DNA of 16,271 nt. Source: a virus. Lineage: Duplodnaviria > Heunggongvirae > Uroviricota > Caudoviricetes. Shown here piece by piece: positions 231 through 16,010 of the stretch; within the stretch, counting starts at the first letter, position 1; every line of letters starts with the position of its first letter. The stretch lies in IMG/VR virus record IMGVR_UViG_3300031857_000009; one strand, 5' to 3'. Position numbers and translations under genes: made by a program. Under the pieces are notes generated by a model. That model was not told the origin of the DNA and searched no databases. It saw only the letters and a program-made list of their open reading frames with translations.

Positions 231-268
231 TTGGTGTTATCAAGTTGGCAAAATAGATATAAAAAAAT

Positions 269-299
269 GTTGTTTATATTGAAACTTATATTATATTTG
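269..299 (+). promoter_or_regulatory. Bacteroidota-type promoter
   Basis: GTTG-N19-TATATTTG. Confidence 0.8.
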
Positions 300-328
300 T
301 ATCGTTAAACCAAACAAAAGAAACAATT

Positions 329-535
329 ATGAAAAAGTTATTTCCTTACATCGCAATCATCGGGTTCATTGTTTACTCAATGTGGGTATCATTAACTTGG
401 GATATTCCCGTAGACAATCAAATGGGTATGTTCTTATTTTCTTGTATGGGTATTGGTATGTTCTTTATCATTTTGTTTGAGGACATCAAAAATTACATCA
501 AGAGTAAAAAGAAACCACAACCTCAAAGGTTCTAA
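329..535 (+). CDS. small membrane protein, 68 aa, two hydrophobic segments
   Basis: ORF after promoter and A-rich leader, followed by terminator; two hydrophobic stretches and a basic tail. Confidence 0.85.
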   Translation: MKKLFPYIAIIGFIVYSMWVSLTWDIPVDNQMGMFLFSCMGIGMFFIILFEDIKNYIKSKKKPQPQRF

Positions 536-554
536 AAATTCCAAAATGGTAATT

Positions 555-582
555 AACCCTCAACGAAAGTTGGGGGTTTTTT
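555..582 (+). terminator. intrinsic terminator
   Basis: AACCCTCAAC-GAAA-GTTGGGGGTT plus T tract. Confidence 0.9.
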
Positions 583-620
583 ATTTACACGAGGTTCTGT
601 GGTGGATTTGAGCAGCGTAG

Positions 621-681
621 AAAATTGTTTGGCGGGGTATTACACATTGGTATTATCGTATTACGCTCGCCAACCAAAAAT
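621..681. repeat. TTGGC/GCCAA inverted box pair
   Basis: AAAATTGTTTGGCG ... CGCCAACCAAAAAT; interior has GTATTAC copies. Confidence 0.85.
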
Positions 682-744
682 CAAAATCCGTCTTCTGTCC
701 CTCGACATCTTGTATCGTAAGTTGGCAAAAAAAATATAAATTTA

Positions 745-776
745 TTTGGAATATCCGTTTAATCATATTATATTCG
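745..776 (+). promoter_or_regulatory. Bacteroidota-type promoter
   Basis: TTTG-N20-TATATTCG. Confidence 0.75.
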
Positions 777-805
777 TATTGTTAAACCAAATAAAAAGAA
801 CAAGT

Positions 806-1210
806 ATGAACAATTACAAAGACATTGAAGAAATCAGAGATTTTATTCAAGGAATGACACACTCCGCAAAAGTGAGTACCGAAGAAATGTTGGGAACAAA
901 CGATAGTGTACCCAATGTAAAAATGTACCTTTTGAAAAAAGTAAACGAAGAAGGGGAAACCGAGTATGGTGTTGGTGGTGGACCAGTACCAAACGACCCA
1001 ATCGGTAGAATGGTGTACGACCGAGTTGTTCCACAAATCATTGAAAGGGATGGACACGAAATTTTGTGTAGTGTTGAAACAACCTTTGACAAGGGCGTTT
1101 TGAATGTTGAGTTCCACAATTTTGTAACCGATGAAAAACATCAAGAGGTTTTTGATTTTTATAAACCTTACCAAGTTTCCGACCTTATGAAAAATCTTTG
1201 TTTAAATTGA
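806..1210 (+). CDS. hypothetical protein, 134 aa
   Basis: Start moved from 746 to ATG 806 because the upstream part of the ORF is the promoter; terminator follows. Confidence 0.85.
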   Translation: MNNYKDIEEIRDFIQGMTHSAKVSTEEMLGTNDSVPNVKMYLLKKVNEEGETEYGVGGGPVPNDPIGRMVYDRVVPQIIERDGHEILCSVETTFDKGVLNVEFHNFVTDEKHQEVFDFYKPYQVSDLMKNLCLN

Positions 1211-1232
1211 ATTTAGTTTGTTGGTTCAGACT

Positions 1233-1262
1233 AACCCTCATCAGTAATGGTGGGGGTTTTTT
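1233..1262 (+). terminator. intrinsic terminator
   Basis: AACCCTCATCA-GTAA-TGGTGGGGGTT plus T tract. Confidence 0.9.
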
Positions 1263-1292
1263 ATTTGTTTCCCTTATTGATAAGGTGAACAT

Positions 1293-1318
1293 TTCAGGAC
1301 TTGAGTCAGGGCCCTGAA
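1293..1318. repeat. TGAGTCA spacer element
   Basis: TTCAGG-ACT-TGAGTCA-GGGC-CCTGAA; related copies at 2793, 3158, 11095. Confidence 0.7.
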
Positions 1319-1320
1319 GG

Positions 1321-1383
1321 AAAATTGTTTGGCGCCGTATGACAAATAGTGAGTATCGTATTACACCTACGCCAACCAATTTT
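1321..1383. repeat. TTGGC/GCCAA inverted box pair
   Basis: AAAATTGTTTGGCG ... CGCCAACCAATTTT; interior GTATGACA and GTATTACAC. Confidence 0.9.
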
Positions 1384-1421
1384 TGGATACGGACGACGGT
1401 TCTGAGAAAAATAAAAATAAA

Positions 1422-1453
1422 TTTGGTATATAAGAAAAATAGTTTTATATTTG
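1422..1453 (+). promoter_or_regulatory. Bacteroidota-type promoter
   Basis: TTTG-N20-TATATTTG. Confidence 0.85.
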
Positions 1454-1478
1454 TATAGTTAAACCAATAGACAAAATC

Positions 1479-2756: not shown

Positions 2757-2761
2757 CAACG

Positions 2762-2790
2762 AACCCTCACCGAAAGGTGGGGGTTTTTTT
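2762..2790 (+). terminator. intrinsic terminator
   Basis: AACCCTCACC-GAAA-GGTGGGGGTT plus T tract. Confidence 0.9.
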
Positions 2791-2792
2791 AT

Positions 2793-2821
2793 GACCTGAA
2801 GAACTTGAGTCACGGTTCAGG
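2793..2821. repeat. TGAGTCA spacer element
   Basis: GACCTGAA-GAACT-TGAGTCA-CGG-TTCAGG. Confidence 0.75.
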
Positions 2822-2855
2822 GTGAAAATTGGTTGGCAAGAAAGATATAAAAAAA

Positions 2856-2887
2856 TTTGGATTATACGAAAAAATGTTTTATCTTTG
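2856..2887 (+). promoter_or_regulatory. Bacteroidota-type promoter
   Basis: TTTG-N20-TATCTTTG. Confidence 0.85.
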
Positions 2888-2909
2888 TGTTTCACCAAAA
2901 CTAATTAAA

Positions 2910-3122
2910 ATGACAAGACAAGAAGTTGTTGGTTTAATTTACCAACATATTCAAACCGAAAACGAAATGGGTTTACCACCGAATAGAAGTTGGGAAGGAA
3001 TTTTTGAAGGTGATAATGATTGGGTAGATGAATGTATTAAGAGTGGATATACACTATTTCAATTACAGAATGAATTGTTCAACGAAGCGATTCAAATTTT
3101 TCGGGATAGTGAAGAAGAGTAA
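2910..3122 (+). CDS. hypothetical protein, 70 aa
   Basis: Start moved from 2829 to ATG 2910 (downstream of promoter); terminator follows. Confidence 0.85.
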   Translation: MTRQEVVGLIYQHIQTENEMGLPPNRSWEGIFEGDNDWVDECIKSGYTLFQLQNELFNEAIQIFRDSEEE

Positions 3123-3129
3123 AGACAAG

Positions 3130-3155
3130 ACCTCAACGAAAGTTGGGGTTTTTTT
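3130..3155 (+). terminator. intrinsic terminator
   Basis: ACCTCAAC-GAAA-GTTGGGGT plus T tract. Confidence 0.9.
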
Positions 3156-3157
3156 AT

Positions 3158-3185
3158 GACCTGAAGTCCTGAGTCACGGTTCAGG
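3158..3185. repeat. TGAGTCA spacer element
   Basis: GACCTGAA-GTCC-TGAGTCA-CGG-TTCAGG. Confidence 0.75.
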
Positions 3186-3188
3186 GTG

Positions 3189-3263
3189 AAAATTGTTTGG
3201 CATCCACTTTACAGATTAGTAGGTTTTTACTTTACAGATTGTAAGAACGCCAACCAAAATTTT
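3189..3263. repeat. TTGGC/GCCAA inverted box pair
   Basis: AAAATTGTTTGGC ... GCCAACCAAAATTTT; interior has direct repeat ACTTTACAGATT at 3206 and 3229. Confidence 0.85.
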
Positions 3264-3339
3264 CCCGACGCAGCGGTTCTGAGATGTTACCGAATGGTAA
3301 GTTACTATTTGGTTAGTTGGCAAGAAAAATAAAAATAAA

Positions 3340-3371
3340 TTTGGTAGAATAAAAAACTCGTTATATCTTTG
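3340..3371 (+). promoter_or_regulatory. Bacteroidota-type promoter
   Basis: TTTG-N20-TATCTTTG. Confidence 0.85.
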
Positions 3372-3392
3372 TATCATAAAATCGACAAAATA

Positions 3393-3941: not shown

Positions 3942-3964
3942 TTGGTTTAACTCGGTTGCGGTGG

Positions 3965-3994
3965 AAAAGGGTAGCAGAAATGTTACCCTTTTTT
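3965..3994 (+). terminator. intrinsic terminator
   Basis: AAAAGGGTAGCA-GAAA-TGTTACCCTTTTTT. Confidence 0.9.
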
Positions 3995-4034
3995 GTTGCG
4001 TTTTAGTTTCACCTCACAGCACGTGCTGTATCCT

Positions 4035-4134
4035 AAATTTGGTTGGCACTGTATGACACTCAATAAAGGCGTATTACACTATATGTTTTGTTTAATCTTT
4101 CGGTCAAAACATTAAACAACACGCCAAACAATTT
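4035..4134. repeat. TTGGC/GCCAA inverted box pair, long form (arm variants swapped)
   Basis: AAATTTGGTTGGC ... GCCAAACAATTT; interior GTATGACAC, GTATTACAC and an AT-rich insert; preceded by perfect palindrome ACAGCACGTGCTGT (4016-4029). Confidence 0.85.
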
Positions 4135-4165
4135 GTGGGATGGAGACGACAGGTATGAAAAAAAA

Positions 4166-4197
4166 TTTGGATTATACTGAATATAGTTTTATATTTG
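4166..4197 (+). promoter_or_regulatory. Bacteroidota-type promoter
   Basis: TTTG-N20-TATATTTG. Confidence 0.85.
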
Positions 4198-4217
4198 TAT
4201 CGTAATACATAATTACT

Positions 4218-4379: not shown

Positions 4380-4509
4380 AACCCTTAATGGATTAAGTGT
4401 GAGACACGTCGCACAAATAGTCCGTAGGAAAATGTTACAGAAGTCGAAACCTTCGGCGAAGGCGTACAGACGAATAAAGTTTGGCAAAAAAGATTTGGTA
4501 AACGAATAA
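4369..4509 (+). CDS. small basic protein, 46 aa (not in ORF track)
   Basis: Hand translation MKNETLNGLSVRHVAQIVRRKMLQKSKPSAKAYRRIKFGKKDLVNE; start overlaps end of previous ORF by 11 nt. Confidence 0.65.
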   Translation: MKNETLNGLSVRHVAQIVRRKMLQKSKPSAKAYRRIKFGKKDLVNE

Positions 4510-4525
4510 AATTGTTATATATTTG
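4494..4525 (+). promoter_or_regulatory. Bacteroidota-type promoter
   Basis: TTTG-N20-TATATTTG. Confidence 0.85.
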
Positions 4526-4550
4526 TATAAACCAATAAATAATAACGACT

Positions 4551-4958: not shown

Positions 4959-4976
4959 ATTTTGTTTGGTTAGGTG

Positions 4977-5010
4977 AAAAGTCCTCGGCGAAAGTCGGGG
5001 ATTTTTTTTT
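4977..5010 (+). terminator. intrinsic terminator
   Basis: AGTCCTCGGC-GAAA-GTCGGGGATT plus T tract. Confidence 0.9.
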
Positions 5011-5044
5011 ATACCAGAATTCGCCCAGCCCACGCCTGGTGGGG

Positions 5045-5104
5045 ATTTTGTTTGGCGGATAACCTATTATATTTAAGTGTTTTATGTGGTCAGCCAACCA
5101 AAAT
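5045..5104. repeat. TTGGC/GCCAA inverted box pair
   Basis: ATTTTGTTTGGC ... GCCAACCAAAAT with a unique interior. Confidence 0.85.
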
Positions 5105-5158
5105 TTTTACGACGCCGGGTGAAACAGTAGATGGTGTTATTGGATATTTTAAAATAAA

Positions 5159-5189
5159 TTTGGATATCATAAAATGAATTGTATATTTG
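5159..5189 (+). promoter_or_regulatory. Bacteroidota-type promoter
   Basis: TTTG-N19-TATATTTG; near-identical to 5523-5553. Confidence 0.85.
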
Positions 5190-5193
5190 TATT

Positions 5194-5499
5194 ATGAAAA
5201 ACTATAACGACATATCATTGAATACCGATGAGGAAGTAATGAACTACCTAAAAAAATCGGAAAAAGAAGGTAAAGTGTGTGACATCATTGAAACTGAAAA
5301 TTATATTTCGGTTGATGTTGAATGGGCATACAACTTTGAAGGTCACAAAGTGGAGAGGAGAAAATTTATCTATCTTCTTACTCGTTCTAACTTTCAATTT
5401 AACAAAACAATATCGCGTTATGTTAGAGAAAAAGACGAAATAAGATTCAGAAGAATTGAAAAAGAGTTCAAACGAATATTCAGATTGACATCAATTTGA
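5194..5499 (+). CDS. hypothetical protein, 101 aa
   Basis: First ATG downstream of promoter is 5194; start uncertain (could be a later Met). Confidence 0.75.
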   Translation: MKNYNDISLNTDEEVMNYLKKSEKEGKVCDIIETENYISVDVEWAYNFEGHKVERRKFIYLLTRSNFQFNKTISRYVREKDEIRFRRIEKEFKRIFRLTSI

Positions 5500-5522
5500 T
5501 TGGCAAAATATCCTAAAAAAAA

Positions 5523-5553
5523 TTTGGATATCATAAAATAAGTTGTATATTTG
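5523..5553 (+). promoter_or_regulatory. Bacteroidota-type promoter
   Basis: TTTG-N19-TATATTTG. Confidence 0.85.
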
Positions 5554-5574
5554 TATTAATAAACTAATACAGAT

Positions 5575-5820
5575 ATGAAAATAAACGAAAAATTAATCGG
5601 AAAAAGAATTCGTCTCGTTTCAATGGAGAACGACCCTAACCCCGTTGAGGAAGGTTCAATGGGAACAATTTATCATGTTGGTCATGGTGTTATCAATGTC
5701 CGTTGGGATAGTGGTAGGACTCTTGGTGTAGTTGAGGGTGAAGATGAATATGAAATCATTGACACTCCCGACACTTATTTACCACCCAACAATTTTCTTG
5801 TCTTTTCGGGAAATATCTGA
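5575..5820 (+). CDS. DUF4314-like protein, 81 aa
   Basis: GxRIRLxxMxNDPxPVxxGxxGTI...VxWDxGRTLxVVxGxD pattern recalled for DUF4314. Confidence 0.75.
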   Translation: MKINEKLIGKRIRLVSMENDPNPVEEGSMGTIYHVGHGVINVRWDSGRTLGVVEGEDEYEIIDTPDTYLPPNNFLVFSGNI

Positions 5821-5857
5821 GGAGATGGTGAACCGCCGATTTTGATTGGCACAATCG

Positions 5858-5890
5858 TTTGTATATTCCAAAAATTCATTTGTATATTTG
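5858..5890 (+). promoter_or_regulatory. Bacteroidota-type promoter
   Basis: TTTG-N21-TATATTTG. Confidence 0.8.
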
Positions 5891-5913
5891 TCCAATAATT
5901 AAAAAAACAAAAA

Positions 5914-6273
5914 ATGTTAATTAAACTCACTTATCAAGGTAAAGGAACCCCAACACTTGTCAATCTACAAAATGTCAAAAACATTTTTAGTATCTTGGAT
6001 AAAAGAAACGACAAGATAGCAACGAAGATTGAATACATAGATGGTACATATGTCAATGTTGAAGAAGACATTAAAACCATTTATGAAATTCAGTGGAAGA
6101 TGATGAATGGAAGTTGTGATATGGACTTTGAAGTTCCATCGGTTGATGAAATGATTAATAACTCATACTACGAAAATGGTGGTAATGGAGACCGCCATTG
6201 GAATGGTCAACGAACCAACCAACCTCGTAAAAGAGTTTACCGAGACAACTACGATAATCAAAACAATTATTGA
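5914..6273 (+). CDS. hypothetical protein, 119 aa; N-terminus loosely FlbD-like, low-complexity Asn/Gly/Arg C-terminus
   Basis: MLIKLT...LVNxxNVxxI...TKIxYxDGxxVxVxE pattern; family tentative. Confidence 0.75.
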   Translation: MLIKLTYQGKGTPTLVNLQNVKNIFSILDKRNDKIATKIEYIDGTYVNVEEDIKTIYEIQWKMMNGSCDMDFEVPSVDEMINNSYYENGGNGDRHWNGQRTNQPRKRVYRDNYDNQNNY

Positions 6274-6274
6274 T

Positions 6275-6415
6275 ATGTTAAAGGAAATGTTTTCAACTTT
6301 CAAAGAAGTTTACCAAGAAGACCGAAAGGAATTTTGGGATGGAATTTTGGGTGGCATTGTAATACTTATGTTTTTCCTATTGACAATGTTTGTTTTAATT
6401 CCTATATTTGGTTAA
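6275..6415 (+). CDS. small single-pass membrane protein, 46 aa
   Basis: ATG 2 nt after the previous stop (start moved from 6176); long hydrophobic C-terminal segment. Confidence 0.75.
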   Translation: MLKEMFSTFKEVYQEDRKEFWDGILGGIVILMFFLLTMFVLIPIFG

Positions 6416-6466
6416 AGTGTAATACACTTGATTTGTCGTTCATAGATTAGTTTTATTTGGTTAAGG

Positions 6467-6494
6467 AACCCTCACAGAAATGTGGGGGTTTTTT
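6467..6494 (+). terminator. intrinsic terminator
   Basis: AACCCTCACA-GAAA-TGTGGGGGTT plus T tract. Confidence 0.9.
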
Positions 6495-6533
6495 GTTTGC
6501 TAAAAAAATTCGTCGCCGGCAAATCCCGTGTTC

Positions 6534-6573
6534 AATTTAGTTTGGCGGGTGTATGACAGATGCCAACCAATTT
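6534..6573. repeat. TTGGC/GCCAA inverted box pair, short form
   Basis: AATTTAGTTTGGC-GGGTGTATGACAGAT-GCCAACCAATTT. Confidence 0.85.
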
Positions 6574-6623
6574 CTGAGATGGTACGGTGAATTCTGGGGT
6601 CAGAAAAAAAAAATAAAGATTTA

Positions 6624-6655
6624 TTTGGATTATAATGAAAAGTGTATTACATTTG
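6624..6655 (+). promoter_or_regulatory. Bacteroidota-type promoter
   Basis: TTTG-N20-TACATTTG. Confidence 0.8.
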
Positions 6656-6677
6656 TATCAAATTAAAAAACATCCAT

Positions 6678-7532: not shown

Positions 7533-7558
7533 GATTGGTTAGGTACTCAATTAATAAG

Positions 7559-7584
7559 AACCCCACAGAAATGTGGGGTTTTTT
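7559..7584 (+). terminator. intrinsic terminator
   Basis: AACCCCACA-GAAA-TGTGGGGTT plus T tract. Confidence 0.9.
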
Positions 7585-8571: not shown

Positions 8572-8573
8572 CT

Positions 8574-8978
8574 ATGGCGAACCCACTAATTCACTCAAAG
8601 AGCAGCGTCAAGCGTTGGGGTGGTAAGGTAGAAGATTATTTACCTATCCACGAACTTATTGATAGTCCGAAAGCGACAATGAACAATAATAGTTCTCGGT
8701 TACTCACCCACAACACTTGGTTCGCATACACTATCATTCCAAAAATCTTCGGTTACAACATTACTAATAGTGATGGTAAGTCAGTTGATGTTGTTGATAT
8801 TGCGATGTTACATATCGCAGAAGATTTTAGAATGAAGTTCGTTCCAACCCCACAAGATTACCTTAAACATTTAGAGGTTCAACCCTGGATGTGTAATGGG
8901 GTAAAAGATTTAGACAACCCCGAAGCGTACGAAGTAGTTAAACAATTAAACCAAAAAATCCACGAATATGCAAACTAA
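8574..8978 (+). CDS. DUF6915-like protein, 134 aa
   Basis: ANPLIHxKSSVKRWGGxxEDYLPIH...HR/HN...FG...NSDG...HIxED pattern; ATG 8574 follows previous stop. Confidence 0.8.
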   Translation: MANPLIHSKSSVKRWGGKVEDYLPIHELIDSPKATMNNNSSRLLTHNTWFAYTIIPKIFGYNITNSDGKSVDVVDIAMLHIAEDFRMKFVPTPQDYLKHLEVQPWMCNGVKDLDNPEAYEVVKQLNQKIHEYAN

Positions 8979-9621
8979 TGAAGCAATCGCACTCTGGAAA
9001 GAGTTAGGTATTACAAGCGCAACTATGGAATTTAGTTGTGGTGGTGATAGTATGAATGATTATCACTTTAATTTTTACAATTCAGAAAACAAAGATGTTG
9101 AGAGTGGTGAACTTGATAGTTTCTTTGATGATGATGTTTTCCGTAGAGTAGAATTTTATGTGAACTCTGACGGACACTACATTGGTGAATTTGGAAGTGT
9201 TGAGATTACACTTGATGAAGATGATGAGGAAAACCCCACTTTCTCGTATTACAAATCTGCACAGGCGGAATGGTCAGAGAGTTTTACAGAAGAAGTTGTT
9301 GTTGAACTCACAGAAAAAGAGGTTGAGTTTATTAGAACCAAAGTCCTTAATTTGGTTGGCAGTCAAGACGGAAGTTCAATTAACTACAAAGGTGATTGTA
9401 TTCTCAATGATGAGGAAGAACAGATTTCTGATACATTATTGGAAAAGATTACTGATGTTGTTGAGAACCACGAATTTGAAAACGCAGACGGCGAACAAGA
9501 GGATTGGTTTCAATTCAACACAGAAGAAGTGGATAGTGATGTATTACCTAAAATTGTAGATAACACATTATTCGTTTCACTAACAAGACAATTTTTGGTA
9601 TTGACTGAAAGTGATATGTAA
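8968..9621 (+). CDS. acidic protein, 217 aa, DUF6878-like N-terminus
   Basis: LGIxxxxMEFSCGGDS...FYVNSDG pattern; overlaps previous gene; family tentative. Confidence 0.75.
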   Translation: MQTNEAIALWKELGITSATMEFSCGGDSMNDYHFNFYNSENKDVESGELDSFFDDDVFRRVEFYVNSDGHYIGEFGSVEITLDEDDEENPTFSYYKSAQAEWSESFTEEVVVELTEKEVEFIRTKVLNLVGSQDGSSINYKGDCILNDEEEQISDTLLEKITDVVENHEFENADGEQEDWFQFNTEEVDSDVLPKIVDNTLFVSLTRQFLVLTESDM

Positions 9622-9641
9622 ACAATTAAAAAGTAAAAGAA

Positions 9642-10331
9642 ATGAAAATCATAATTGAAAACACTCGTTTTGACTACAACATTGGTTGTCGTTTATTAAA
9701 AACAAAATATCGTAATACACCCTTTAATGGTTTGGAAGATATTTGGGAAGATATTGTTCCTATTACTTTCAAAGAAATTACAACCGAAATTCAAAACATT
9801 GAACAGAGGCGTATCGCCGTAGGTTGTTTGGGTTTGGAAAACATTTACAAAGAAGTGAACCCCACACTTATTAAGTCCGAAACGATTTCAAAAGAAACAT
9901 TTTGGGTTGGTGAGAATGGTGAACTCATTAAGAAAAACTTTGAGGACACCTACGAACTTTATGAAGTAAAAGGAAATGTTTGGGGTGAAGGTGCAGAATT
10001 TGGTTGGCGTAGACCAGATAATGTTCACTTTGTAAAGTGTAAGGACACCTCAACTGATAGGGAGTATTTTATTTGGGTGGACGCACAAAGTGTTTATCGT
10101 ACTAACAACAAAGACAAATGGTTGAGTAGTAGTGAGAACTTTGGTGAAAAGATTACCCCTATTCAAGCAATCGCGTGGACAATTCAAACAGACATTAAAG
10201 AAGGTGGAATTGAGAAAATTGTTCGGCAAGGTGATTGTGTTCTTATTAAGAAGAAAAAGAAGTGTGAAAGTGGTTCGGTTAGACACTTGACCGAAAAAGA
10301 ATACCGAAAACTATTGGTCGCAGAGAGTTAG
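9642..10331 (+). CDS. DUF6745-like protein, 229 aa
   Basis: NIEQRRIA..LG.E, VxCxxTSTxRxYxxWV, AIAWT motifs; family tentative. Confidence 0.75.
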   Translation: MKIIIENTRFDYNIGCRLLKTKYRNTPFNGLEDIWEDIVPITFKEITTEIQNIEQRRIAVGCLGLENIYKEVNPTLIKSETISKETFWVGENGELIKKNFEDTYELYEVKGNVWGEGAEFGWRRPDNVHFVKCKDTSTDREYFIWVDAQSVYRTNNKDKWLSSSENFGEKITPIQAIAWTIQTDIKEGGIEKIVRQGDCVLIKKKKKCESGSVRHLTEKEYRKLLVAES

Positions 10332-10351
10332 TTGTTTCATTTTTATTGGTT

Positions 10352-10382
10352 AAAACCCTCACTCAAAAGGTGGGGGTTTTTT
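10352..10382 (+). terminator. intrinsic terminator
   Basis: AAAACCCTCACT-CAAAA-GGTGGGGGTTTTTT. Confidence 0.9.
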
Positions 10383-10420
10383 ATTGCTCCGAAGTTGCTG
10401 CTGGTTGCGCTGCTGTTCGT

Positions 10421-10482
10421 GATTTTGTTTGGCATTCTGTAAACCCAATAAAATCAATGGTTTGGGTTCGCCAACCAAAATC
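10421..10482. repeat. TTGGC/GCCAA inverted box pair, family B interior
   Basis: GATTTTGTTTGGC ... TGTAAACCCAATAAAATCAA ... GCCAACCAAAATC. Confidence 0.9.
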
Positions 10483-10603
10483 AAGGGCTGGTTGCTGCTG
10501 TTGCACAACTGGTTTTTTCTAGTCATTGCTTCTGGTTTTACTGGTTTCCTGCTGCGGGGACCTGGAATCCACCAAATTGTTTGGCAAAAAAAATAAAAAA
10601 ATT

Positions 10604-10635
10604 ATTGGATTATATTCTATATACTTTTATATTTG
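10604..10635 (+). promoter_or_regulatory. Bacteroidota-type promoter
   Basis: ATTG-N20-TATATTTG. Confidence 0.8.
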
Positions 10636-10656
10636 TGGTGTTAAATTAATAAACAT

Positions 10657-11064
10657 ATGTACACGACAATTAAAGATTATTATTCCTTCTTGAAAAAACA
10701 AAAAGAGGAAAAAGAGAATGAACTTTCTAAGATAAAAGAAAGTGTTAACCAACAAATGGATGTTTTTATGTCCGAACATGGTTGGACACGAAAGGGTAAA
10801 GTTCAAACCAAAAAGTATACTCAAAAAGTAACTTACACCAAAAAGTTCAATGGTAAGGATATCGTAATTGAGTATCGTGGTAACTACCAAGATGATTTTG
10901 TTGATGGTGGTTGCCCCGAGTTCGTACACGATAAATCAATACCTAATTGTGTTGAGAAATTTCAAATGGGTTACTTTCATTGGAACGACCAAGACACAAG
11001 TGGTTGGAGTTTAGATGTGGTAATGGAACGAATGGAAGTGTTCTATAACAAGTACACCTCGTAA
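10657..11064 (+). CDS. hypothetical protein, 135 aa
   Basis: ORF between promoter and terminator; N-terminal coiled-coil-like segment. Confidence 0.85.
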   Translation: MYTTIKDYYSFLKKQKEEKENELSKIKESVNQQMDVFMSEHGWTRKGKVQTKKYTQKVTYTKKFNGKDIVIEYRGNYQDDFVDGGCPEFVHDKSIPNCVEKFQMGYFHWNDQDTSGWSLDVVMERMEVFYNKYTS

Positions 11065-11067
11065 GAG

Positions 11068-11089
11068 AAACCCCGAAAGGGGTTTTTTT
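11068..11089 (+). terminator. intrinsic terminator
   Basis: AAACCCC-GAAA-GGGGTTTTTTT. Confidence 0.9.
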
Positions 11090-11094
11090 ATTTC

Positions 11095-11120
11095 TCAGGA
11101 CTCTGAGTCACGGTTCAGGA
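11095..11120. repeat. TGAGTCA spacer element
   Basis: TCAGGA-CTC-TGAGTCA-CGG-TTCAGGA. Confidence 0.7.
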
Positions 11121-11154
11121 CGGAAATTAGATTGGCAAGAAAAATAAAAAAATA

Positions 11155-11186
11155 TTTGGATTATATTAATTACTGATTTATATTTG
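11155..11186 (+). promoter_or_regulatory. Bacteroidota-type promoter
   Basis: TTTG-N20-TATATTTG. Confidence 0.85.
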
Positions 11187-11206
11187 TATTATAAAACGAC
11201 AAGACA

Positions 11207-11425
11207 ATGATAAAATCTATTGATGAAAAACAAGGAGGTATTGAGATTGACCTCACAGGACCTGATGGGAACGCGTTCGTTCTTATTGGTCTCGCCTCAA
11301 AATGGGCGAAACAACTCGGTTTGGACTCCAAGAAAATTCAAGAGGAGATGATGAGTGGGGATTATGAGAATTTGATTGGCGTGATTGAAAAGTATTTCGG
11401 TGACTATGTAACTCTTTATCGTTAA
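11207..11425 (+). CDS. conserved small protein, 72 aa (DLTGPDGNAF motif)
   Basis: ORF after promoter; motif recalled from a widespread small phage family of unknown function. Confidence 0.85.
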   Translation: MIKSIDEKQGGIEIDLTGPDGNAFVLIGLASKWAKQLGLDSKKIQEEMMSGDYENLIGVIEKYFGDYVTLYR

Positions 11426-11429
11426 TCAT

Positions 11430-11633
11430 ATGGCACAGAAAATTCAAATTTTATCCCCTGATGGGTTCACACTCGAAAGGGATGTACCTTACTACAAGTC
11501 GCACAGAGCGGCGTGTAAGGCGTTCGAACAATGGAAGAAAGGGTACGAAACTCAAGGGTATTATTCTTCCGTAAAATATGGTCGCATACCATTAGTTGAC
11601 CTTGAGGATTATTGTCAATTAAATTATTTGTAA
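11430..11633 (+). CDS. hypothetical protein, 67 aa
   Basis: Tightly spaced middle gene of a three-gene operon. Confidence 0.8.
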   Translation: MAQKIQILSPDGFTLERDVPYYKSHRAACKAFEQWKKGYETQGYYSSVKYGRIPLVDLEDYCQLNYL

Positions 11634-11634
11634 C

Positions 11635-11955
11635 ATGAAAAATTTCAGTCAAGTTTGTGTTTGGCCCGCAACTCTTATCGGTAAGTCCAACATTAAGGAA
11701 TTCGAAAAGTGGTTAAAACAAGAATTCGGTGTTCGTGCAAAATATTGTGAGGAAGTAGAAACACTACCTACACCAGGCGAACCTGAAACGGGTGGAAGAA
11801 ACGATGTGTTCTTTAGAGTCCATCAAGATGACATTCCAAAATTCGCAGTACCCCGTTTACAAATTGGTATTCGTTGGTGGGAGGATGTATTACTTAATGG
11901 TAATGGTGTTCTCTATCCCCAAGATATTTTGGAAAGATACCCGAAGACATGGTGA
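11635..11955 (+). CDS. conserved hypothetical protein, 106 aa (TGGRND / GIRWWED motifs)
   Basis: ATG 2 nt after the previous stop. Confidence 0.85.
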   Translation: MKNFSQVCVWPATLIGKSNIKEFEKWLKQEFGVRAKYCEEVETLPTPGEPETGGRNDVFFRVHQDDIPKFAVPRLQIGIRWWEDVLLNGNGVLYPQDILERYPKTW

Positions 11956-11982
11956 ACAGTGAATATTGATTGGCAAAAATAA

Positions 11983-12013
11983 CTTGTAAAAAGAAATAAT
12001 CTTTATACCTTTG
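11983..12013 (+). promoter_or_regulatory. Bacteroidota-type promoter
   Basis: CTTG-N19-TACCTTTG. Confidence 0.75.
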
Positions 12014-12028
12014 TAAAAAACCATTCGT

Positions 12029-12280
12029 ATGACAAATCAAGAAATAACTACCCATTGGGTAAATCAAAGTGAGAAAGTCCTAAAGGGACGAGTTATCAAA
12101 TCAGTTCGTTATCTTACCGATGAGGAAATGGAACTTATGGGTTGGTACAAGAGACCAATTTGTATTGAGTTGGACAACGGAACACTATGTATTCCTTCTA
12201 TGGATGATGAGGGAAATGATGGTGGAAGTTTGTTCTACCAAGAAAAAGGTAAAGAACTTGATGTATTACCTGTAATCTAA
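12029..12280 (+). CDS. conserved hypothetical protein, 83 aa (DDEGNDGG motif)
   Basis: ORF after promoter; motif recalled from an uncharacterised phage family. Confidence 0.85.
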   Translation: MTNQEITTHWVNQSEKVLKGRVIKSVRYLTDEEMELMGWYKRPICIELDNGTLCIPSMDDEGNDGGSLFYQEKGKELDVLPVI

Positions 12281-12365
12281 AAACACTTGACAATGTAAAA
12301 TATGATGTGTAACTTTTTATTGGATTACATTTCATAGTTGTAATTTGTGTTTGGTTTGACACACT

Positions 12366-12393
12366 AAAGGGGTTCTTCGGAATCCCTTTTTTT
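12366..12393 (+). terminator. intrinsic terminator
   Basis: AAAGGGGTTC-TTCG-GAATCCCTTTTTTT (cUUCGg loop). Confidence 0.9.
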
Positions 12394-12582
12394 GTTTCTA
12401 AAATACTGAAAATCTTCGTTTTAACATACGCCAGGGGGAAAACTGGACGACGGCTGGACGATTTTGTTTGGCAAGAAATACTAGTATTCTTGGTGAATAT
12501 CCTTAAAAGTTTTAGTATGTTTGTCATACACAAAGTCAAAGATGTATGTGGAAAAACTTTTTTGAAAAAACTTTAAAAAAAA

Positions 12583-12614
12583 TTTGGAAAAAAAGAAAAA
12601 CTATTATATCTTTG
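12583..12614 (+). promoter_or_regulatory. Bacteroidota-type promoter
   Basis: TTTG-N20-TATCTTTG. Confidence 0.85.
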
Positions 12615-12653
12615 TACCCACATTAAATCTTTAATCTAAAATTAGAAACGAAA

Positions 12654-13409
12654 ATGAGTACAAAAAATGTTCAAGTAAAGTTCACCCAAAATTTGGGTAT
12701 GTTCAAACTTCACAATGTAAATCGTGAGGTAGACTCTCCACGCGTTAAGCGTATTACAGACTCGATGAAGAAGGACGGATTAAAACTCGTTCCAATCATT
12801 GTAAACTCCCAGTATGTGGTTGTAGACGGACAACACCGACTAACCGCAGCAAAAGAAGCGGGTAAAGGTATCTACTTTATTGTAGACAACTCAATCCCCA
12901 ACACCACGAAAGGTATCTTTGAAGCCGCACGTAAGTTCAACCAGAACATGAAAGAGTGGGGTAAGAAAGATTACATTCATGGTTTTTCCGAACAAGGAAA
13001 CAAATCTTACAAAACTTTGGAAGATTTTTCAAAAGAGTTTCCGATGTTTTCTTTGACCGAAAGAATTATGTTACTACAAAATTCTGGTACTCGTCATTGT
13101 GACAAACAAGATTTTGCGGATGGTAAGTTTGTTGTTGGTAATATGGAAACCGCCAAAGAATGGGCGAATAACCTACTCCAACTGAAACCTTACTTTGAAA
13201 AGGGTTACAACAAATCGGTATTTGTTCGTACTATTCTTACCATTATGGAAAAGAAACCCGATTTTAAGTTTGAAGAATTTTTACATAAAGTAAAACTTCG
13301 TCCAAGTTCAATCTATATGTGTGGTGATAAAAAATCATACGCGGAAATGATTGAAGACATTTACAACTACAAGCGTCGTAATGAGGACAAGTTGAACCTT
13401 CGTTTCTAA
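12654..13409 (+). CDS. ParB/Srx N-terminal-like (DGQHR) domain protein, 251 aa
   Basis: NRxV...V..I..SM...G...PIIVN....VVDGQHRL.A motif is the ParB/Srx-fold signature. Confidence 0.85.
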   Translation: MSTKNVQVKFTQNLGMFKLHNVNREVDSPRVKRITDSMKKDGLKLVPIIVNSQYVVVDGQHRLTAAKEAGKGIYFIVDNSIPNTTKGIFEAARKFNQNMKEWGKKDYIHGFSEQGNKSYKTLEDFSKEFPMFSLTERIMLLQNSGTRHCDKQDFADGKFVVGNMETAKEWANNLLQLKPYFEKGYNKSVFVRTILTIMEKKPDFKFEEFLHKVKLRPSSIYMCGDKKSYAEMIEDIYNYKRRNEDKLNLRF

Positions 13410-13431
13410 CTTTGGATTAGGGTTAGTGATT

Positions 13432-13461
13432 GGGGTGACCGAAAGGTTACCCCTTTTTTTT
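13432..13461 (+). terminator. intrinsic terminator
   Basis: GGGGTGACC-GAAA-GGTTACCCT plus T tract. Confidence 0.9.
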
Positions 13462-13609
13462 GCTCAAAATTTCACAAGATGTAACATCCTGAAGACGACT
13501 CCAGATTTTGTTTGGCGGAGTTTTCAACACACAAATGTTTGTAATCCAATAAAAAAGACACTTTTTGTATAAGGTTTTGACAAAAAAGTTGAACAAAGTG
13601 AAAATATTT

Positions 13610-13641
13610 GTTGTTTATCGAAAATATTCTTATTACTTTTG
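13610..13641 (+). promoter_or_regulatory. Bacteroidota-type promoter
   Basis: GTTG-N20-TACTTTTG. Confidence 0.7.
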
Positions 13642-13664
13642 TACTGTAATTCAAAAACTTGAAT

Positions 13665-14036
13665 ATGATAAAAAAACCAAGAAAGACTACGGCTAATTCT
13701 CTGAAGAAGTCTTTGCACGAAATTCGTGAATGCCTTAATGAGAGTTTACCAAACTTTGAGAAAAAGGAAATGGTGGGAATTAAATTTTCTCGTGTTGGTA
13801 CTCGTTATCACATTGAAAATGCACCAGTTCCTCCTACCGATAAGATTGGTGTACAGCTTGAGCGTTCTTTCAATGATTTTATGCGTAAGCTGAAAGTAAC
13901 TTATGGTGGAATGAAACTTGAAGGTTCGATGGTGTTAGGGACCAAAGACGATTTGTTTTTGGTTGGCTACAACAACTATGAACGTAAAGGTAAAAACCTC
14001 ACCAAAAAGGGACATTCAATAGAAGGGGTTCTTTAG
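13665..14036 (+). CDS. basic hypothetical protein, 123 aa
   Basis: ATG 13665 after promoter; Lys-rich; terminator follows. Confidence 0.8.
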   Translation: MIKKPRKTTANSLKKSLHEIRECLNESLPNFEKKEMVGIKFSRVGTRYHIENAPVPPTDKIGVQLERSFNDFMRKLKVTYGGMKLEGSMVLGTKDDLFLVGYNNYERKGKNLTKKGHSIEGVL

Positions 14037-14066
14037 TTTAGTATATTGATTTAATGTTCGGTTCGA

Positions 14067-14096
14067 AAAACCCTCACAGAAATGTGGGGGTTTTTT
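14067..14096 (+). terminator. intrinsic terminator
   Basis: AAAACCCTCACA-GAAA-TGTGGGGGTTTTTT; same hairpin as 6467. Confidence 0.9.
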
Positions 14097-14140
14097 ATTG
14101 CTCGAATGTGTGCGGAGGAGCTGCACAGTTCGTCTATTAA

Positions 14141-14166
14141 ATTAGTTTGGCGCCCGCCAAACAATA
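14141..14166. repeat. TTGGC/GCCAA inverted box pair with no interior
   Basis: ATTAGTTTGGCG-CC-CGCCAAACAATA. Confidence 0.8.
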
Positions 14167-14215
14167 TCGCCCTGGGAAGAACAGGTCCCTCCTGAAGAAA
14201 AAAAATAAAAATAAA

Positions 14216-14247
14216 TTTGGAATATAAAAGAATTCGTTTTATATTTG
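14216..14247 (+). promoter_or_regulatory. Bacteroidota-type promoter
   Basis: TTTG-N20-TATATTTG. Confidence 0.85.
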
Positions 14248-14267
14248 TATTGTTAAACCAATATTAT

Positions 14268-15038
14268 ATGGAGTACAGAAATAAAACCCAAGCCAGAAAG
14301 GAAACTGGAATCAATTATTTAGGTTCAGTTAACCTGACATCAAAACACGCTAAGGCGTACAAGTATGATGAATTAACCTACAGTCTTTACCTCGCACCCG
14401 CGGACTTAAGTGGTTACGAAGTTTGCCCAATGAGAAACGCGGAGTGTACTGCACTATGTTTAAACGAATCTGGTATGAATCGAATGAACATGAGAGATGA
14501 CATGATTACTGAGAGTAGAATTAAAAAAACAAAATTGTTTTTCGAACATCGCCAGTATTTCATGCAATGGATGGTTGCAGAAATTGAGGCGGCAAAAAAG
14601 AAGGCAGAAAAACAAGGTTATCACTTTAGTGTTCGTTTAAATAACACTTCAGACATTTCACCCGAATCTTTTCATATGGAGATAGATGGTAAAAGAAAAA
14701 ACATTTTGCAATTGTTTCCTAATGTTATGTTTTACGACTACAGCAAAGTGGGTAAACGAATGGAGTTAGTTAAGAAGTATAAGAACTACGACTTAACATT
14801 TTCATTTAGTGGTACAAACTTTTCAGATTGTATTAGTATGTTGAACAATGGTATACGAGTTGCCGTTGTTTTCAAAAAAGAAATACCCAAAAAGTTTTGG
14901 GGTAGAAAAGTTATCGATGGTGACTTATATGATATGAGATATCGAGATGAGAACGACATTATTGTGGGATTAAAATATAAAGTCACACGAAAACGACCTC
15001 AAAAAGATAGTAAGTTTATAGTAGACCCCTCACAATGA
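14268..15038 (+). CDS. GP88-family protein, 256 aa
   Basis: SLYLAPA..SG..VCP.....C...CL..SG, VRLNxTSD, FYDY.K, NYDLTFS, DGDxxDxRxxD, VGLxYK motifs recalled for the phage gene product 88 family; start moved to 14268. Confidence 0.8.
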   Translation: MEYRNKTQARKETGINYLGSVNLTSKHAKAYKYDELTYSLYLAPADLSGYEVCPMRNAECTALCLNESGMNRMNMRDDMITESRIKKTKLFFEHRQYFMQWMVAEIEAAKKKAEKQGYHFSVRLNNTSDISPESFHMEIDGKRKNILQLFPNVMFYDYSKVGKRMELVKKYKNYDLTFSFSGTNFSDCISMLNNGIRVAVVFKKEIPKKFWGRKVIDGDLYDMRYRDENDIIVGLKYKVTRKRPQKDSKFIVDPSQ

Positions 15039-15048
15039 GGGGTTTTTT
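15025..15048 (+). terminator. intrinsic terminator overlapping stop codon
   Basis: ACCCCTCA-CAA-TGAGGGGT plus T tract. Confidence 0.85.
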
Positions 15049-15087
15049 ATTGCTTGAAGATGTTGCGCGCATGATGCTGGTCATCGG

Positions 15088-15149
15088 AATTTTGTTTGGC
15101 ATTCTGTAATCCTAATAAAATCAACACTTTAAGTTGTGCCAACCAAAAT
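15088..15149. repeat. TTGGC/GCCAA inverted box pair, family B interior
   Basis: AATTTTGTTTGGC-ATTCTGTAATCCTAATAAAATCAA ... GCCAACCAAAAT. Confidence 0.9.
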
Positions 15150-15261
15150 CACCTGGCTTCAGACTGGTTGCAACAGCCAGTTTTACTGGTCATTTTGCTG
15201 GTGACCCTGGTTAATCCAAAAACTTGGTTGGCAAGAAAACAATAAAAAAGATAAAAAATTA

Positions 15262-15293
15262 TTTGGAATATAATAATAACAGTATTATATTTG
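15262..15293 (+). promoter_or_regulatory. Bacteroidota-type promoter
   Basis: TTTG-N20-TATATTTG. Confidence 0.85.
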
Positions 15294-15313
15294 TATCATA
15301 AAACAACATAACA

Positions 15314-15916
15314 ATGGGACAATATTATAAACCAATCATTTTAGGTAACACCCCAAAAGAGGGTGAACACGAAACAGTTAAAGCGTGGATGTATTCACAC
15401 GAGTACGACAACGGACTCAAACTGATGGAGCATTCCTATCAAGGGAACAACTTCGTTTCAACTTTTGAAAAACAATTAACCCGTAGAGGTGAACATTACA
15501 AAAGTCGTGTAGTGTGGGCGGGTGATTACGCAGGAGAAGAACCAGGTGTAAAAGTCATTTCGGAAGGGAAGGAGTACGATGCAAATTTGTATTCACTTTG
15601 TAATGATGAAAACCAAATCAAACCCAAAGTGTCATCAACGGATGAATACCCCTACATTGTAAACCACACCAAAAAAATGTTCGTGGATAAAAACAAAGTT
15701 CCCGAAATTCAAGGATGGGATGGTGTAAAAATTCACCCTTTACCACTATTAACTAGTGAAGGTAACGGAATGGGTGGGGGAGATTTTAGAGGTGATGATG
15801 AAAATGAGATTGTTGGTTCGTGGGCAAGAGATGTTATCTCGGTAGAAAAAGATAGTCCACTCGTAACCAATGGGATGATGAATTACACCGAATTGATTTT
15901 TGATTTGAAAGAATAA
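15314..15916 (+). CDS. conserved phage hypothetical protein, 200 aa (MGQYY / GLKLMEHSY motifs)
   Basis: ORF between promoter and terminator; motifs recalled from an uncharacterised family. Confidence 0.85.
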   Translation: MGQYYKPIILGNTPKEGEHETVKAWMYSHEYDNGLKLMEHSYQGNNFVSTFEKQLTRRGEHYKSRVVWAGDYAGEEPGVKVISEGKEYDANLYSLCNDENQIKPKVSSTDEYPYIVNHTKKMFVDKNKVPEIQGWDGVKIHPLPLLTSEGNGMGGGDFRGDDENEIVGSWARDVISVEKDSPLVTNGMMNYTELIFDLKE

Positions 15917-15920
15917 AAAG

Positions 15921-15944
15921 GTCCCCCGTCACAGGGGGATTTTT
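15921..15944 (+). terminator. intrinsic terminator
   Basis: TCCCCC-GTCACA-GGGGGA plus T tract. Confidence 0.8.
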
Positions 15945-15960
15945 GTTTGGCAAAAAAACA

Positions 15961-15992
15961 TTTGGAATATAAAAGAATTAGTATTATATTTG
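15961..15992 (+). promoter_or_regulatory. Bacteroidota-type promoter
   Basis: TTTG-N20-TATATTTG; near-identical to 1729-1760. Confidence 0.85.
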
Positions 15993-16010
15993 TATTATAA
16001 ACCAATCAAG

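Follow-up and report, generated by a model that had tools for sequence, protein, structure and literature searches.

Promoter/stem-loop cassettes (PeSLs) are known from T4-type phages that infect Proteobacteria and Cyanobacteria (RB49/phi1, PST/T4, nt-1/KVP40; PMC2839356, PMC4122927). A terminator, an AT-rich tract, and a strong host-type early promoter form a composite element there, which is repeated many times in a hyperplastic region of orphan genes, and close relatives differ by insertion or deletion of whole cassettes. Crossovers fall inside the loop, in the AT-rich tract, or between −10 and the ATG. The same design, with Bacteroidota promoters, is found in the 16,271-nt stretch of viral DNA analyzed here (the window; bases 1485-17755 of the 114,927-bp IMG/VR virus record IMGVR_UViG_3300031857_000009), whose spacers additionally carry a 14-nt box—alone and in inverted pairs—that PeSLs do not have. 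This array is a Bacteroidota equivalent of the T4-type PeSLs. As the best overall explanation, we hold it probable, if by no means certain, that early-gene cassettes are shuffled and bear an operator box read by a phage-encoded protein.

The first-pass annotation of this DNA could not match the box layer to any described system. Analogues do, however, exist. The stoperators of cluster A mycobacteriophages (L5 gp71, TipsytheTRex repressor; PMC9283540, PMC6550527) are asymmetric sites of 13-14 bp, which recur dozens of times, both at promoters and in narrow gaps between genes, follow the direction of transcription, and differ in motif between sub-lineages. The KorB operators (OB) of RK2 and the cytidine triphosphate (CTP)-dependent clamps ParB and Noc (PDB 8qa8, 8qa9, 7ol9, 6sdk) exemplify a single protein that serves many promoters from sites near or far.

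The record is classed as linear with a CheckV completeness estimate of 34%, and it is a fragment of a jumbo phage, as its relatives reach sizes of 270-324 kb. At least 14 DNA runs from at least 10 lake and fresh water studies hold 96-100% of the sampled words of window positions 6001-16000, so the sequence is not an assembly artefact. The source is an uncultured freshwater jumbo phage and the host a Bacteroidota bacterium, which fits the sigma-A consensus TAnnTTTG (PMC9723704). A near-identity DNA search among GenBank phages gave no close relative, and the matches of the DUF932 protein were without exception below 30% identity. The window (GC content 35-36%, all genes but one on the + strand) covers roughly two thirds of a 26-kb early block whose small genes are mostly orphans; 17 of 28 window proteins have neither a Pfam nor a PHROG match, and the families represented in the array are DUF932, DUF3846, DUF4314, DUF6915, GP88, and SprT-like. 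Rfam searched at a permissive E-value gave only chance-level matches in the window. Relatives were gathered via g27 (GP88-family) and the DUF3846 protein g04, which yielded 27 loci with 55-98% protein identity (L-numbers below); L003 and L026 together represent the closest relative, whose shared DNA is 87-96% identical to the window. G000 denotes the 115-kb contig of the window phage and G001 a 97%-complete relative of 323,865 bp. The RNA data are assembled metatranscriptome contigs, which may contain DNA and are blind to starts, ends, and strand; uncovered parts are uninformative.

A strict promoter pattern (TTKG, 18-21 nt, TAnnTTTG) matches 18 distinct sites on the + strand of the window and none on the − strand, compared with 0.76 ± 0.9 expected in random sequences of matched composition (first-order Markov). 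None of these sites lies inside a gene; 17 of them are located 12-47 nt ahead of an ATG, and the remaining one (7914) corresponds to the −33 region of the 7942 promoter. Six further promoters with a weaker −33 or −7 element were found by eye. The resulting total of 23 predicted promoters for 30 genes, all on the + strand and all between genes, is the number that the first-pass annotation had given. Repeat clustering groups 18 copies into one 51-nt promoter family, and the promoters at 1729, 14216, and 15961, described earlier as near-identical, are 87-91% alike. Along the 115-kb contig, promoter matches are concentrated in the first 25 kb. In Flavobacterium, the sigma-A consensus is TAnnTTTG at −12 to −5 (PMC9723704), which upholds the assignment to a Bacteroidota phage; the promoters of PeSLs, in contrast, are of the sigma-70 type. 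The combination of an upstream box with TAAATTTG at the −33 region was considered as a tandem second promoter and rejected because its spacing is 13-16 nt instead of 19-21.

Terminators were defined as hairpins of −7 kcal/mol or better that end at a run of at least five T. This rule yields 19 sites on the + strand and 4 on the − strand of the window; 17 sites stand directly 3' of genes, in agreement with the earlier count. A terminator consensus scan found 25 sites compared with 10.7 ± 3.3 in shuffled sequences. RNA-library contigs extend over gene bodies, and those of two studies stop at 14060, shortly ahead of the terminator at 14069, a weak indication. The order of parts at a boundary is stop, terminator, GC-rich spacer, inverted box pair, spacer, single box, A-tract, promoter, and leader. 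Among the 23 promoter-bearing boundaries, 17 have the terminator—a hairpin and T-run upstream of the promoter in the same spacer, as in the PeSL composite—11 an inverted pair, and 18 a promoter-adjacent box. Hence, the single boundary grammar proposed at first holds for the order of the parts wherever they are present; the full set does not occur at every boundary. Of its lesser motifs, the TTAAACCAA leader is found in just 6 of 23 leaders and TTGCTC after 5 terminators.

The recurrence of parts in new combinations could be followed directly. The terminator at 2184 matches that at 4977 and the one at 6467 that at 14067, as had been stated. The spacers at 2197-2246 and 14081-14130 are 86% alike despite different terminators, and conversely a terminator common to 2162 and 4956 (93%) is followed by different spacers. 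The window spacers span 70-435 bp of such exchangeable parts, whereas PeSLs measure about 100 bp. Small minus-strand genes are seen between the inverted pair and the promoter-proximal box, directed into the pair, at 7714-7845 in the window and at about 6400-7085 in L026; the inverted pair read on the minus strand ends in a U-run.

Within 16 kb, window and closest relative differ by seven gains or losses of whole cassettes. L003 and L026 lack g06, g10, g15, and g20 and carry three extra cassettes; g06, g10, and g15 are absent from L007 as well. Genes also move: in L005, L006, and L028, g06 sits between g20 and g21 and g23 is relocated, and in L015, L017, and L018 the g16-g19 unit abuts g27. At the g20 joint, box and A-tract share about 25 identical bases, giving a 551-bp box-to-box indel relative to L003, and this deletion joint (10580 to 11132) recurs in an RNA-library contig. 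The g15 joint is the box alone, where the two sides share just TTTTGTTTGGC over 11-12 bases. L026 bears at g03|g04 a 504-bp cassette bounded by two copies of a 17-nt box, and the g06 joint consists of the TGAGTCA spacer and the box and ends at the box. Other joints use other parts: the insert after g01 in L026 is joined at the terminator hairpin, the L007 insert at 14037-14267 is a full cassette between two terminator copies, and the g10 joint has the spacer on its left and the −7 element on its right, with the two promoters flanking g10 (5144-5199, 5508-5563) being 88% alike. At g02|g03, L026 has about 800 extra bases including a minus-strand gene. For the seven events relative to L003/L026 and the one in L007, every joint maps to a repeated part (box, terminator, spacer part, or promoter), and genes are spared; four of the seven joints to the closest relative are at the box. 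In an RNA-library contig of a related strain (run X17), position 2812 (TGAGTCA spacer after g05) is joined back to 1407 (A-tract before g03), which could stem from a relative with another gene order or from a circular or tandem junction.

The alignment of relatives thus bears out the prediction that breakpoints of gain, loss, and movement lie in the spacers, and a cassette array with a role in modular shuffling is well supported by these sequence comparisons. The likeness to PeSLs suggested at first extends to promoter, terminator, orphan-rich region, and element-flanked indels. Transcription units of one to four genes would each be read from a host-type sigma-A promoter that is close to consensus (TTTG at −33, TAnnTTTG at −7) and preceded by an A-tract, and most would close with a GC-stem hairpin terminator. 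Dozens of copies exist of the promoters, terminators, spacer parts, and boxes, and recombination among them—within one genome or between co-infecting relatives—inserts, deletes, and moves whole self-sufficient cassettes and leaves the genes unbroken, with the boxes doubling as short homologies for joining. PeSLs operate in the same manner in T4-type phages. No tyrosine or serine recombinase and no Y1 transposase scored above the family cut-off in G000 or G001 (PF00589, PF00239, PF01797), while PF00589 matched in all 14 control genomes. This argues against a dedicated cassette recombinase and makes general phage recombination at short homologies the likely engine.

The TTGGC noted at first is the core of a 14-nt asymmetric motif, gAWTTWGKTTGGCR. 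In the 115-kb contig, copies of at least 14 bits number 49 forward and 16 reverse, and all 65 lie in the first 26 kb—exactly the + strand small-gene block—so the motifs are not spread uniformly. In the window, 39 of 47 copies fall in non-coding DNA, which accounts for 30% of its length. Reverse boxes are the right arms of inverted pairs or belong to a 72-bp tandem repeat at the left edge, and all lone boxes outside this repeat are co-directional with transcription. In four orthologous spacer alignments, identity to the window is 0.91 in box columns and 0.92 in promoter hexamers, compared with 0.66 in the remaining spacer, and GC-rich fillers and pair interiors are replaced outright between relatives. 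The variation within the box is position-specific (W, K, R), the remaining positions being near invariant; in this genome, 10 of 11 pairs have T before TTGGC in one arm and G in the other. As judged from this conservation, the box layer is real and under purifying selection.

The distance from box to −7 element is 36-38, 46-48, or 57-58 in 65 of 65 cases over five genomes, and at the orthologous g27-g28 promoter it is 47 in three relatives and 57-58 in three. Taking the −7 T as −12, the box centre hence lies near −51, −61, or −71. Positions of this kind are the geometry of activators that touch the alpha subunit of the polymerase. The centres of inverted pairs are spaced by 9, 20, 30, 40-43 (eight times), 52, and 80 bp, giving a Rayleigh R of 0.81 against 10.5 bp, a phasing that is suggestive only, because copies share descent and other lineages show weaker or no phasing. 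Distant arrays keep promoters, terminators, and the layout of pair plus single box, with different box sequences: the same grammar occurs with TTACTGGGG, TTTACTGGA, TTTACCGGG, TTGTCTGGC, or TTGTTTCGCAC in other lineages, for instance (A/T)TTACTGGGG in L008-L014, ACTTTACTGGA in L022, AGTTTACCGGGA in L019, TTGTCTGGC in L032, and TTGTTTCGCAC in L034. In G001, 44 of 44 copies of TTTACTGGA fall in a single 18-kb block (156.4-174.1 kb of 324 kb), compared with 2 for a control pattern. This difference between lineages is reminiscent of the way in which operators and repressors have diverged in cluster A mycobacteriophages (PMC9283540, PMC6550527).

The box is best read as the predicted operator of a phage-encoded regulator. 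The sequence-specific protein that it would bind is most likely encoded by the phage itself and different in each lineage. The lone box upstream of the A-tract would place this protein on one helix face relative to RNA polymerase, and with the inverted pairs after terminators, mostly at whole helical turns, one protein could control the early block at once. We favour a shut-off of very strong promoters over activation. Like stoperators, the box is asymmetric, occurs in many copies, and keeps one direction. Stoperators, in contrast, are distributed genome-wide in temperate phages, where they silence the prophage from within the polymerase path, whereas the boxes are confined to one early block, lie upstream of promoters or after terminators, and also form inverted pairs. 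Stoperators furthermore have a cognate immunity repressor; no HTH_3 protein and no integrase was found in the window contig, and G001 likewise has no integrase, the absence of a repressor being only weakly tested with a contig 34% complete.

For a reader of the box, the families HTH_3, HU/IHF (integration host factor), Sigma70_r4_2, and DnaA domain IV were searched and found nowhere in the contig. The sole DNA-binding-type fold found in the array is that of g25, which carries a DGQHR motif (12654-13409, +; phrog_12305, E=6e-22). Its model has a predicted local distance difference test (pLDDT) score of 90.8, and Foldseek matches it with probability 1.0 to ParB, Noc, and KorB over 216-250 columns at template-modelling (TM) scores of 0.3-0.48. 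On this model, g25 is confidently predicted as a ParB/Noc/KorB-type two-domain protein with an N-terminal nucleotide-binding and a helical DNA-binding domain. Its homologues are located in arrays with boxes starting TTGTTT or TTGTCT. The presence of this predicted fold in the array and a minimal pair at 14138-14169, a 16-bp-type palindrome like parS or OB, recall KorB and ParB. However, OB, parS, and NBS are palindromes bound by dimers, whereas the boxes are mostly lone half-sites or widely spaced pairs, and the DGQHR motif of g25 belongs to the DndB/DUF262 branch. The array of a relative encodes a free-standing RNA polymerase alpha C-terminal domain of 98 aa (L022 4034-4327 = G001 162283-162456; PF03118, E=4.8e-12), present in G001 and not found in the window contig; it could compete for the A-tracts.

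Several observations speak against an operator with a phage-encoded reader. No helix-turn-helix or other classical DNA-binding protein appears among the roughly 48 array proteins in Pfam and PHROGs. For g25, the fold fits; G001, which has the same grammar, has no g25 homologue, and the putative recognition helix is nearly identical in L004 and L034, whose boxes differ. As it is absent from G001 and its helix does not track the box, g25 is a weak candidate only. Eight box copies lie inside genes, and several related lineages (L033, L029) have pairs and no promoter-proximal box. The pair phasing is not significant in L022 (p=0.31), L019 (p=0.9), and L004, and the spacing statistics overstate independence because module copies are related by descent. 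Confinement to the block is proven only for the box of G001 itself, as the window contig covers a third of the genome. Hence, of the claim that the boxes are recognised by a protein, selection, fixed orientation, 10-bp quantised spacing, and lineage-specific sequences stand in favour as indirect support, and the reader itself was not found.

New here are the flipped interiors of inverted box pairs and the enrichment of GTATKAC in the block together with its adjacent absence. In the pair 15087-15151, L003 has the 37-nt interior turned round (84% identity when reversed, 57% when not) between arms that stay in place, and the interior is also flipped in L007 (compared loci L003 10826-10880, L007 10829-10882); within both L004 and L007, the same interior family occurs in both orientations. 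Exact scans of viral contigs other than the window's own record gave no match to this interior in either orientation. Whatever its role, the interior works both ways round, or short inverted repeats merely flip their loops. One interior family (7632-7679, 10429-10474, 15096-15142) carries AATAAAATCAA-N4-TTR; among 12 copies from the relatives, 10 agree with WATCAANNNNTTR, the IHF consensus of enterobacteria, a match without statistical weight because the copies are homologous. The bacterial interspersed mosaic elements (BIMEs) and repetitive IHF-binding palindromes (RIPs) of enterobacteria consist of inverted repetitive extragenic palindromes (REPs) around an IHF site; REPs are chromosomal, form hairpins, and are moved by REP-associated tyrosine transposases (RAYTs). 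The window spacers share with them the mosaic, post-gene intergenic position, inverted repeats, and exchangeable inner motifs, and differ in that no such transposase is present and the boxes are tied to promoters.

Another pair family has an interior of two GTATKAC copies 20-21 nt apart. This heptamer occurs 41 times in the first 26 kb, compared with about 9 expected, on both strands and also in genes (in the window for instance at 637, 658, 1337, 1358, 2272, 2292, 4051, 4071, and 6551), and 5 times in the remaining 89 kb, compared with about 30 expected, with none between about 30 and 100 kb. The DNA-metabolism genes in the free zone of the contig include those for a helicase, thymidylate synthase, and an SbcC-like protein. 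In G001, the array holds 47 of 96 copies and the 109 kb next to it are free of the heptamer (observed over G001 157-283 kb). Depletion on both strands suggests a DNA-level signal. A tentative reading, which we consider possible and on balance doubtful, is a two-signal genome-zoning shut-off: the phased lineage box, read by a fast-evolving phage protein, and GTATKAC, four- to five-fold enriched there, would silence the early block, its neighbours would stay free of signal, and the boxes would serve as joints. No such two-signal zoning system has been described.

If the box were instead a dedicated recombination site, at which a site-specific enzyme cuts and joins, pairs would resemble the attC and lone boxes the attI of integrons. 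The frequent box joints fit this, one of them sharing just the 11-12 nt of the box itself, as do the module similarity that ends exactly after TTGGCA (2786-2838 vs 3151-3202), conserved arms around free and even flipped interiors, and the T versus G asymmetry of the arms. Yet the tyrosine recombinase IntI of integrons has no counterpart here, with PF00589 unmatched in G000 and G001, and the other recombinase and transposase families were equally missing above cut-off; the remaining joints fall in terminators and promoters, as homology-driven exchange predicts; and an interior of 36 bp is too short for two double-stranded DNA sites to pair. Loop flips between short inverted repeats also arise by strand switching during replication. 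That the distance to the promoter varies in 10-bp quanta suggests a function in transcription, and integron cassettes are promoterless and depend on one common promoter, unlike the cassettes here, each with its own. We regard a dedicated site as improbable. A comparably low probability is given to a box without any reader—a neutral linker, homogenised by recombination or gene conversion and useful only as homology for shuffling. PeSLs, too, stay conserved over some 100 bp although no protein is known to bind them (PMC2839356), and box sequences that drift between lineages with no reader found would be expected of a linker. However, the box is an isolated conserved island, 91% identical amid flanks that are unrelated between copies and scrambled between relatives; its variation is specific to the W, K, and R positions and the others are near invariant, its lone copies keep a single orientation, and its promoter spacing shifts only in 10-bp steps.

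Very unlikely, in our estimate, is that boxes and pairs work at the RNA level, forming hairpins for processing, antitermination, or antisense termination in read-through transcripts. Pairs can form 13-bp stems, with the minus-strand stem ending in a U-run and minus-strand open reading frames (ORFs) directed into them (window 7714-7845; L026), and one relative's RNA-library contig crosses a box (12459-12733). Most copies, though, are placed after a terminator and ahead of the following promoter, a lone box is unable to fold, the arms conserve sequence and not merely pairing, helical multiples of interior length are meaningless for a hairpin loop, and Rfam had no match. Even less credit is given to the pairs being miniature transposable elements in the spacers, with lone boxes as remnants: the arms do resemble terminal inverted repeats, presence varies between relatives, and interiors fall into families; yet there is no transposase above cut-off and no visible target-site duplication, orthologous spacers retain their pairs across relatives of 70-98% protein identity, and lone boxes occupy fixed, phased positions at promoters. 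The operator reading, with shuffling of the cassettes, hence remains our preferred one.

Along the window, units, boundaries, and genes lie on the + strand unless stated. The left edge of the array is the 72-bp tandem repeat (33-230; 2.7 copies, TRF score 359, 96% matches), each unit of which holds a reverse-oriented box (40-54, 112-126, 184-198; 19.6-20.4 bits). An ORF at 2-256 runs through this repeat, and the region may be non-coding. Unit 1 (245-535; promoter families D1, D4) has a weak box at 245, an A-tract, a variant −33, a −7 element at 292-299, and the TTAAACCAA leader, and its gene, as read from the sequence, is a 68-aa membrane-type ORF (329-535). The g01|g02 boundary (536-805) comprises the terminator 555-582, an inverted pair at 620-682 with a 35-nt interior holding two GTATTAC, the single box at 722, and a −7 at 769. 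At g02|g03 (1211-1478; families D15, D16, D17), the terminator 1234-1262 and the TGAGTCA part 1302-1319 precede the pair 1320-1384, in which GTATGAC and GTATTAC are 21 nt apart; a promoter-proximal box is missing, and the −7 is at 1446. The g03|g04 boundary (1695-1789) has no terminator and consists of the box 1706-1720, a short A-tract, and a −7 at 1753 at a distance of 38. At g04|g05 (2165-2453; families D9, D10), the terminator 2186-2215 is followed by the GAGCTGCACAG spacer part and the inverted pair 2255-2318, with a weak box (2348-2362) at distance 56 from the −7 at 2413 on the promoter side.

The mobile cassette of g06 (2757-3122) consists of the terminator 2762-2790, the TGAGTCA part 2806-2823, the box 2824-2838, the −7 at 2880, and the ORF 2910-3122. 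It is followed by the g06|g07 boundary (3123-3392; family D15) with the terminator 3129-3155, the TGAGTCA part 3170-3187, the pair 3188-3262 (47-nt interior), the single box at 3317, and the −7 at 3364. An interior of 75 nt belongs to the pair 4034-4136 at g07|g08 (3942-4217; terminator 3967-3994, −7 at 4190). A T-run terminator is absent at g08|g09 (4380-4550), where the box 4472-4486 is 37 from the −7 at 4518. The g10 cassette region (4959-5499) contains the terminator 4980-5010, the pair 5043-5106, and g10 itself (5194-5499). The g10 promoter (5182-5196) has its −7 element at 5182 and an ATG just 12 nt after the −7 T; either the messenger RNA is leaderless or the true start lies further in, at 5227 or 5239. 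Upstream of g11 (5491-5913), the box 5491-5505 overlaps the g10 stop and the −7 is at 5546; g11 (DUF4314, 5575-5820) is followed by the box 5837-5851 and a −7 at 5883. At g13|g14 (6416-6677; terminator 6467-6494, −7 at 6648), a short pair (6533-6575) encloses 15 nt with GTATGAC.

The DUF932 protein g14 (6678-7532; Pfam E=2.8e-24) is kept in all related arrays by synteny. Its downstream boundary g14|g15 (7533-7967) holds the terminator 7559-7584, the pair 7623-7688 with AATAAAATCAA in its interior, a 43-aa spacer ORF on the − strand (7714-7845), the box 7886-7900, and a −7 at 7942. In the g15 cassette (7968-8292), the gene (7968-8189) is followed by the terminator 8193-8215, the box 8209-8223, and a −7 at 8265. 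The four-gene unit g16-g19 (8293-10331), which includes DUF6915 (8574-8978), has in-frame boxes at 9347-9361, 9995-10009, and 10214-10228. The g20 region (10332-11206) opens with the terminator 10354-10382, the pair 10420-10483, a second hairpin (10486-10518), and the box 10572-10586; the g20 cassette (10657-11064) continues with the terminator 11069-11089, a TGAGTCA part, the box 11123-11137, and a −7 at 11179. At g23|g24 (11956-12028), the box 11961-11975 is 36 from the −7 at 12006.

Upstream of g25 (12281-12653), the terminator 12368-12393 and the box 12459-12473 precede an orphan promoter with its −7 at 12516, and the g25 promoter has its −7 at 12607. The segment 12459-12560 shows a box and, 48 nt downstream, this good promoter, then no ORF and a small hairpin; an RNA-library contig begins at 12543, near the orphan promoter, which is weak evidence. 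A small RNA or a second upstream promoter of g25 may be encoded here. Downstream of g25 (13410-13664) follow the terminator 13432-13461, the lone box 13503-13517, a variant −33, and a −7 at 13634. The boundary upstream of g27 (14037-14267) has the terminator 14069-14096, the GAGCTGCACAG part, the minimal palindromic pair with its 4-nt interior, and a −7 at 14240. The GP88-family gene g27 (14268-15038; Pfam E=1.5e-33) served as anchor for 22 related loci. At the g27-g28 boundary (15024-15313), the terminator 15024-15048 is followed by the pair 15087-15151, whose flipped interior was seen by footprint alignment, and by the box 15219-15233 at distance 58 from the −7 at 15286. The right-end boundary (15917-16010) has the terminator 15920-15944, the box 15938-15952, and a −7 at 15985 at distance 38; the next gene starts at 16011.

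Outside the window, G000 encodes on its − strand a 276-aa ORF with a sigma-70 region 4 domain (92464-92619, E=2.6e-13), which makes it a phage-encoded sigma factor, presumably for later genes. Domains of a phage multisubunit RNA polymerase were not found, and divergent phage enzymes might escape these models. The Pfam matches of the arrays (window genes and L030) include DUF932, DUF3846, DUF4314, ParB-like, and SprT-like proteins, and in L034 an S-adenosylmethionine (S-AdoMet) lyase (10109-10783) lies in the array. Such a protein set resembles the anti-restriction 'leading regions' of conjugative plasmids.

These portable promoter–terminator cassettes let orphan genes swap safely in jumbo phages of a kind common in lakes, with joints that can be followed at base level. 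The near-consensus promoters, compact terminators, and phased upstream boxes could serve Bacteroidota genetics. The box layer makes it possible to test how a giant phage might switch about 50 strong promoters as a unit and bears on the joint change of regulator and site between lineages. If the two-signal reading is true, one protein set would silence the whole early block and the neighbouring genes must avoid the signal; the lack of GTATKAC across a whole region may reflect a sequence-specific activity of a new kind.

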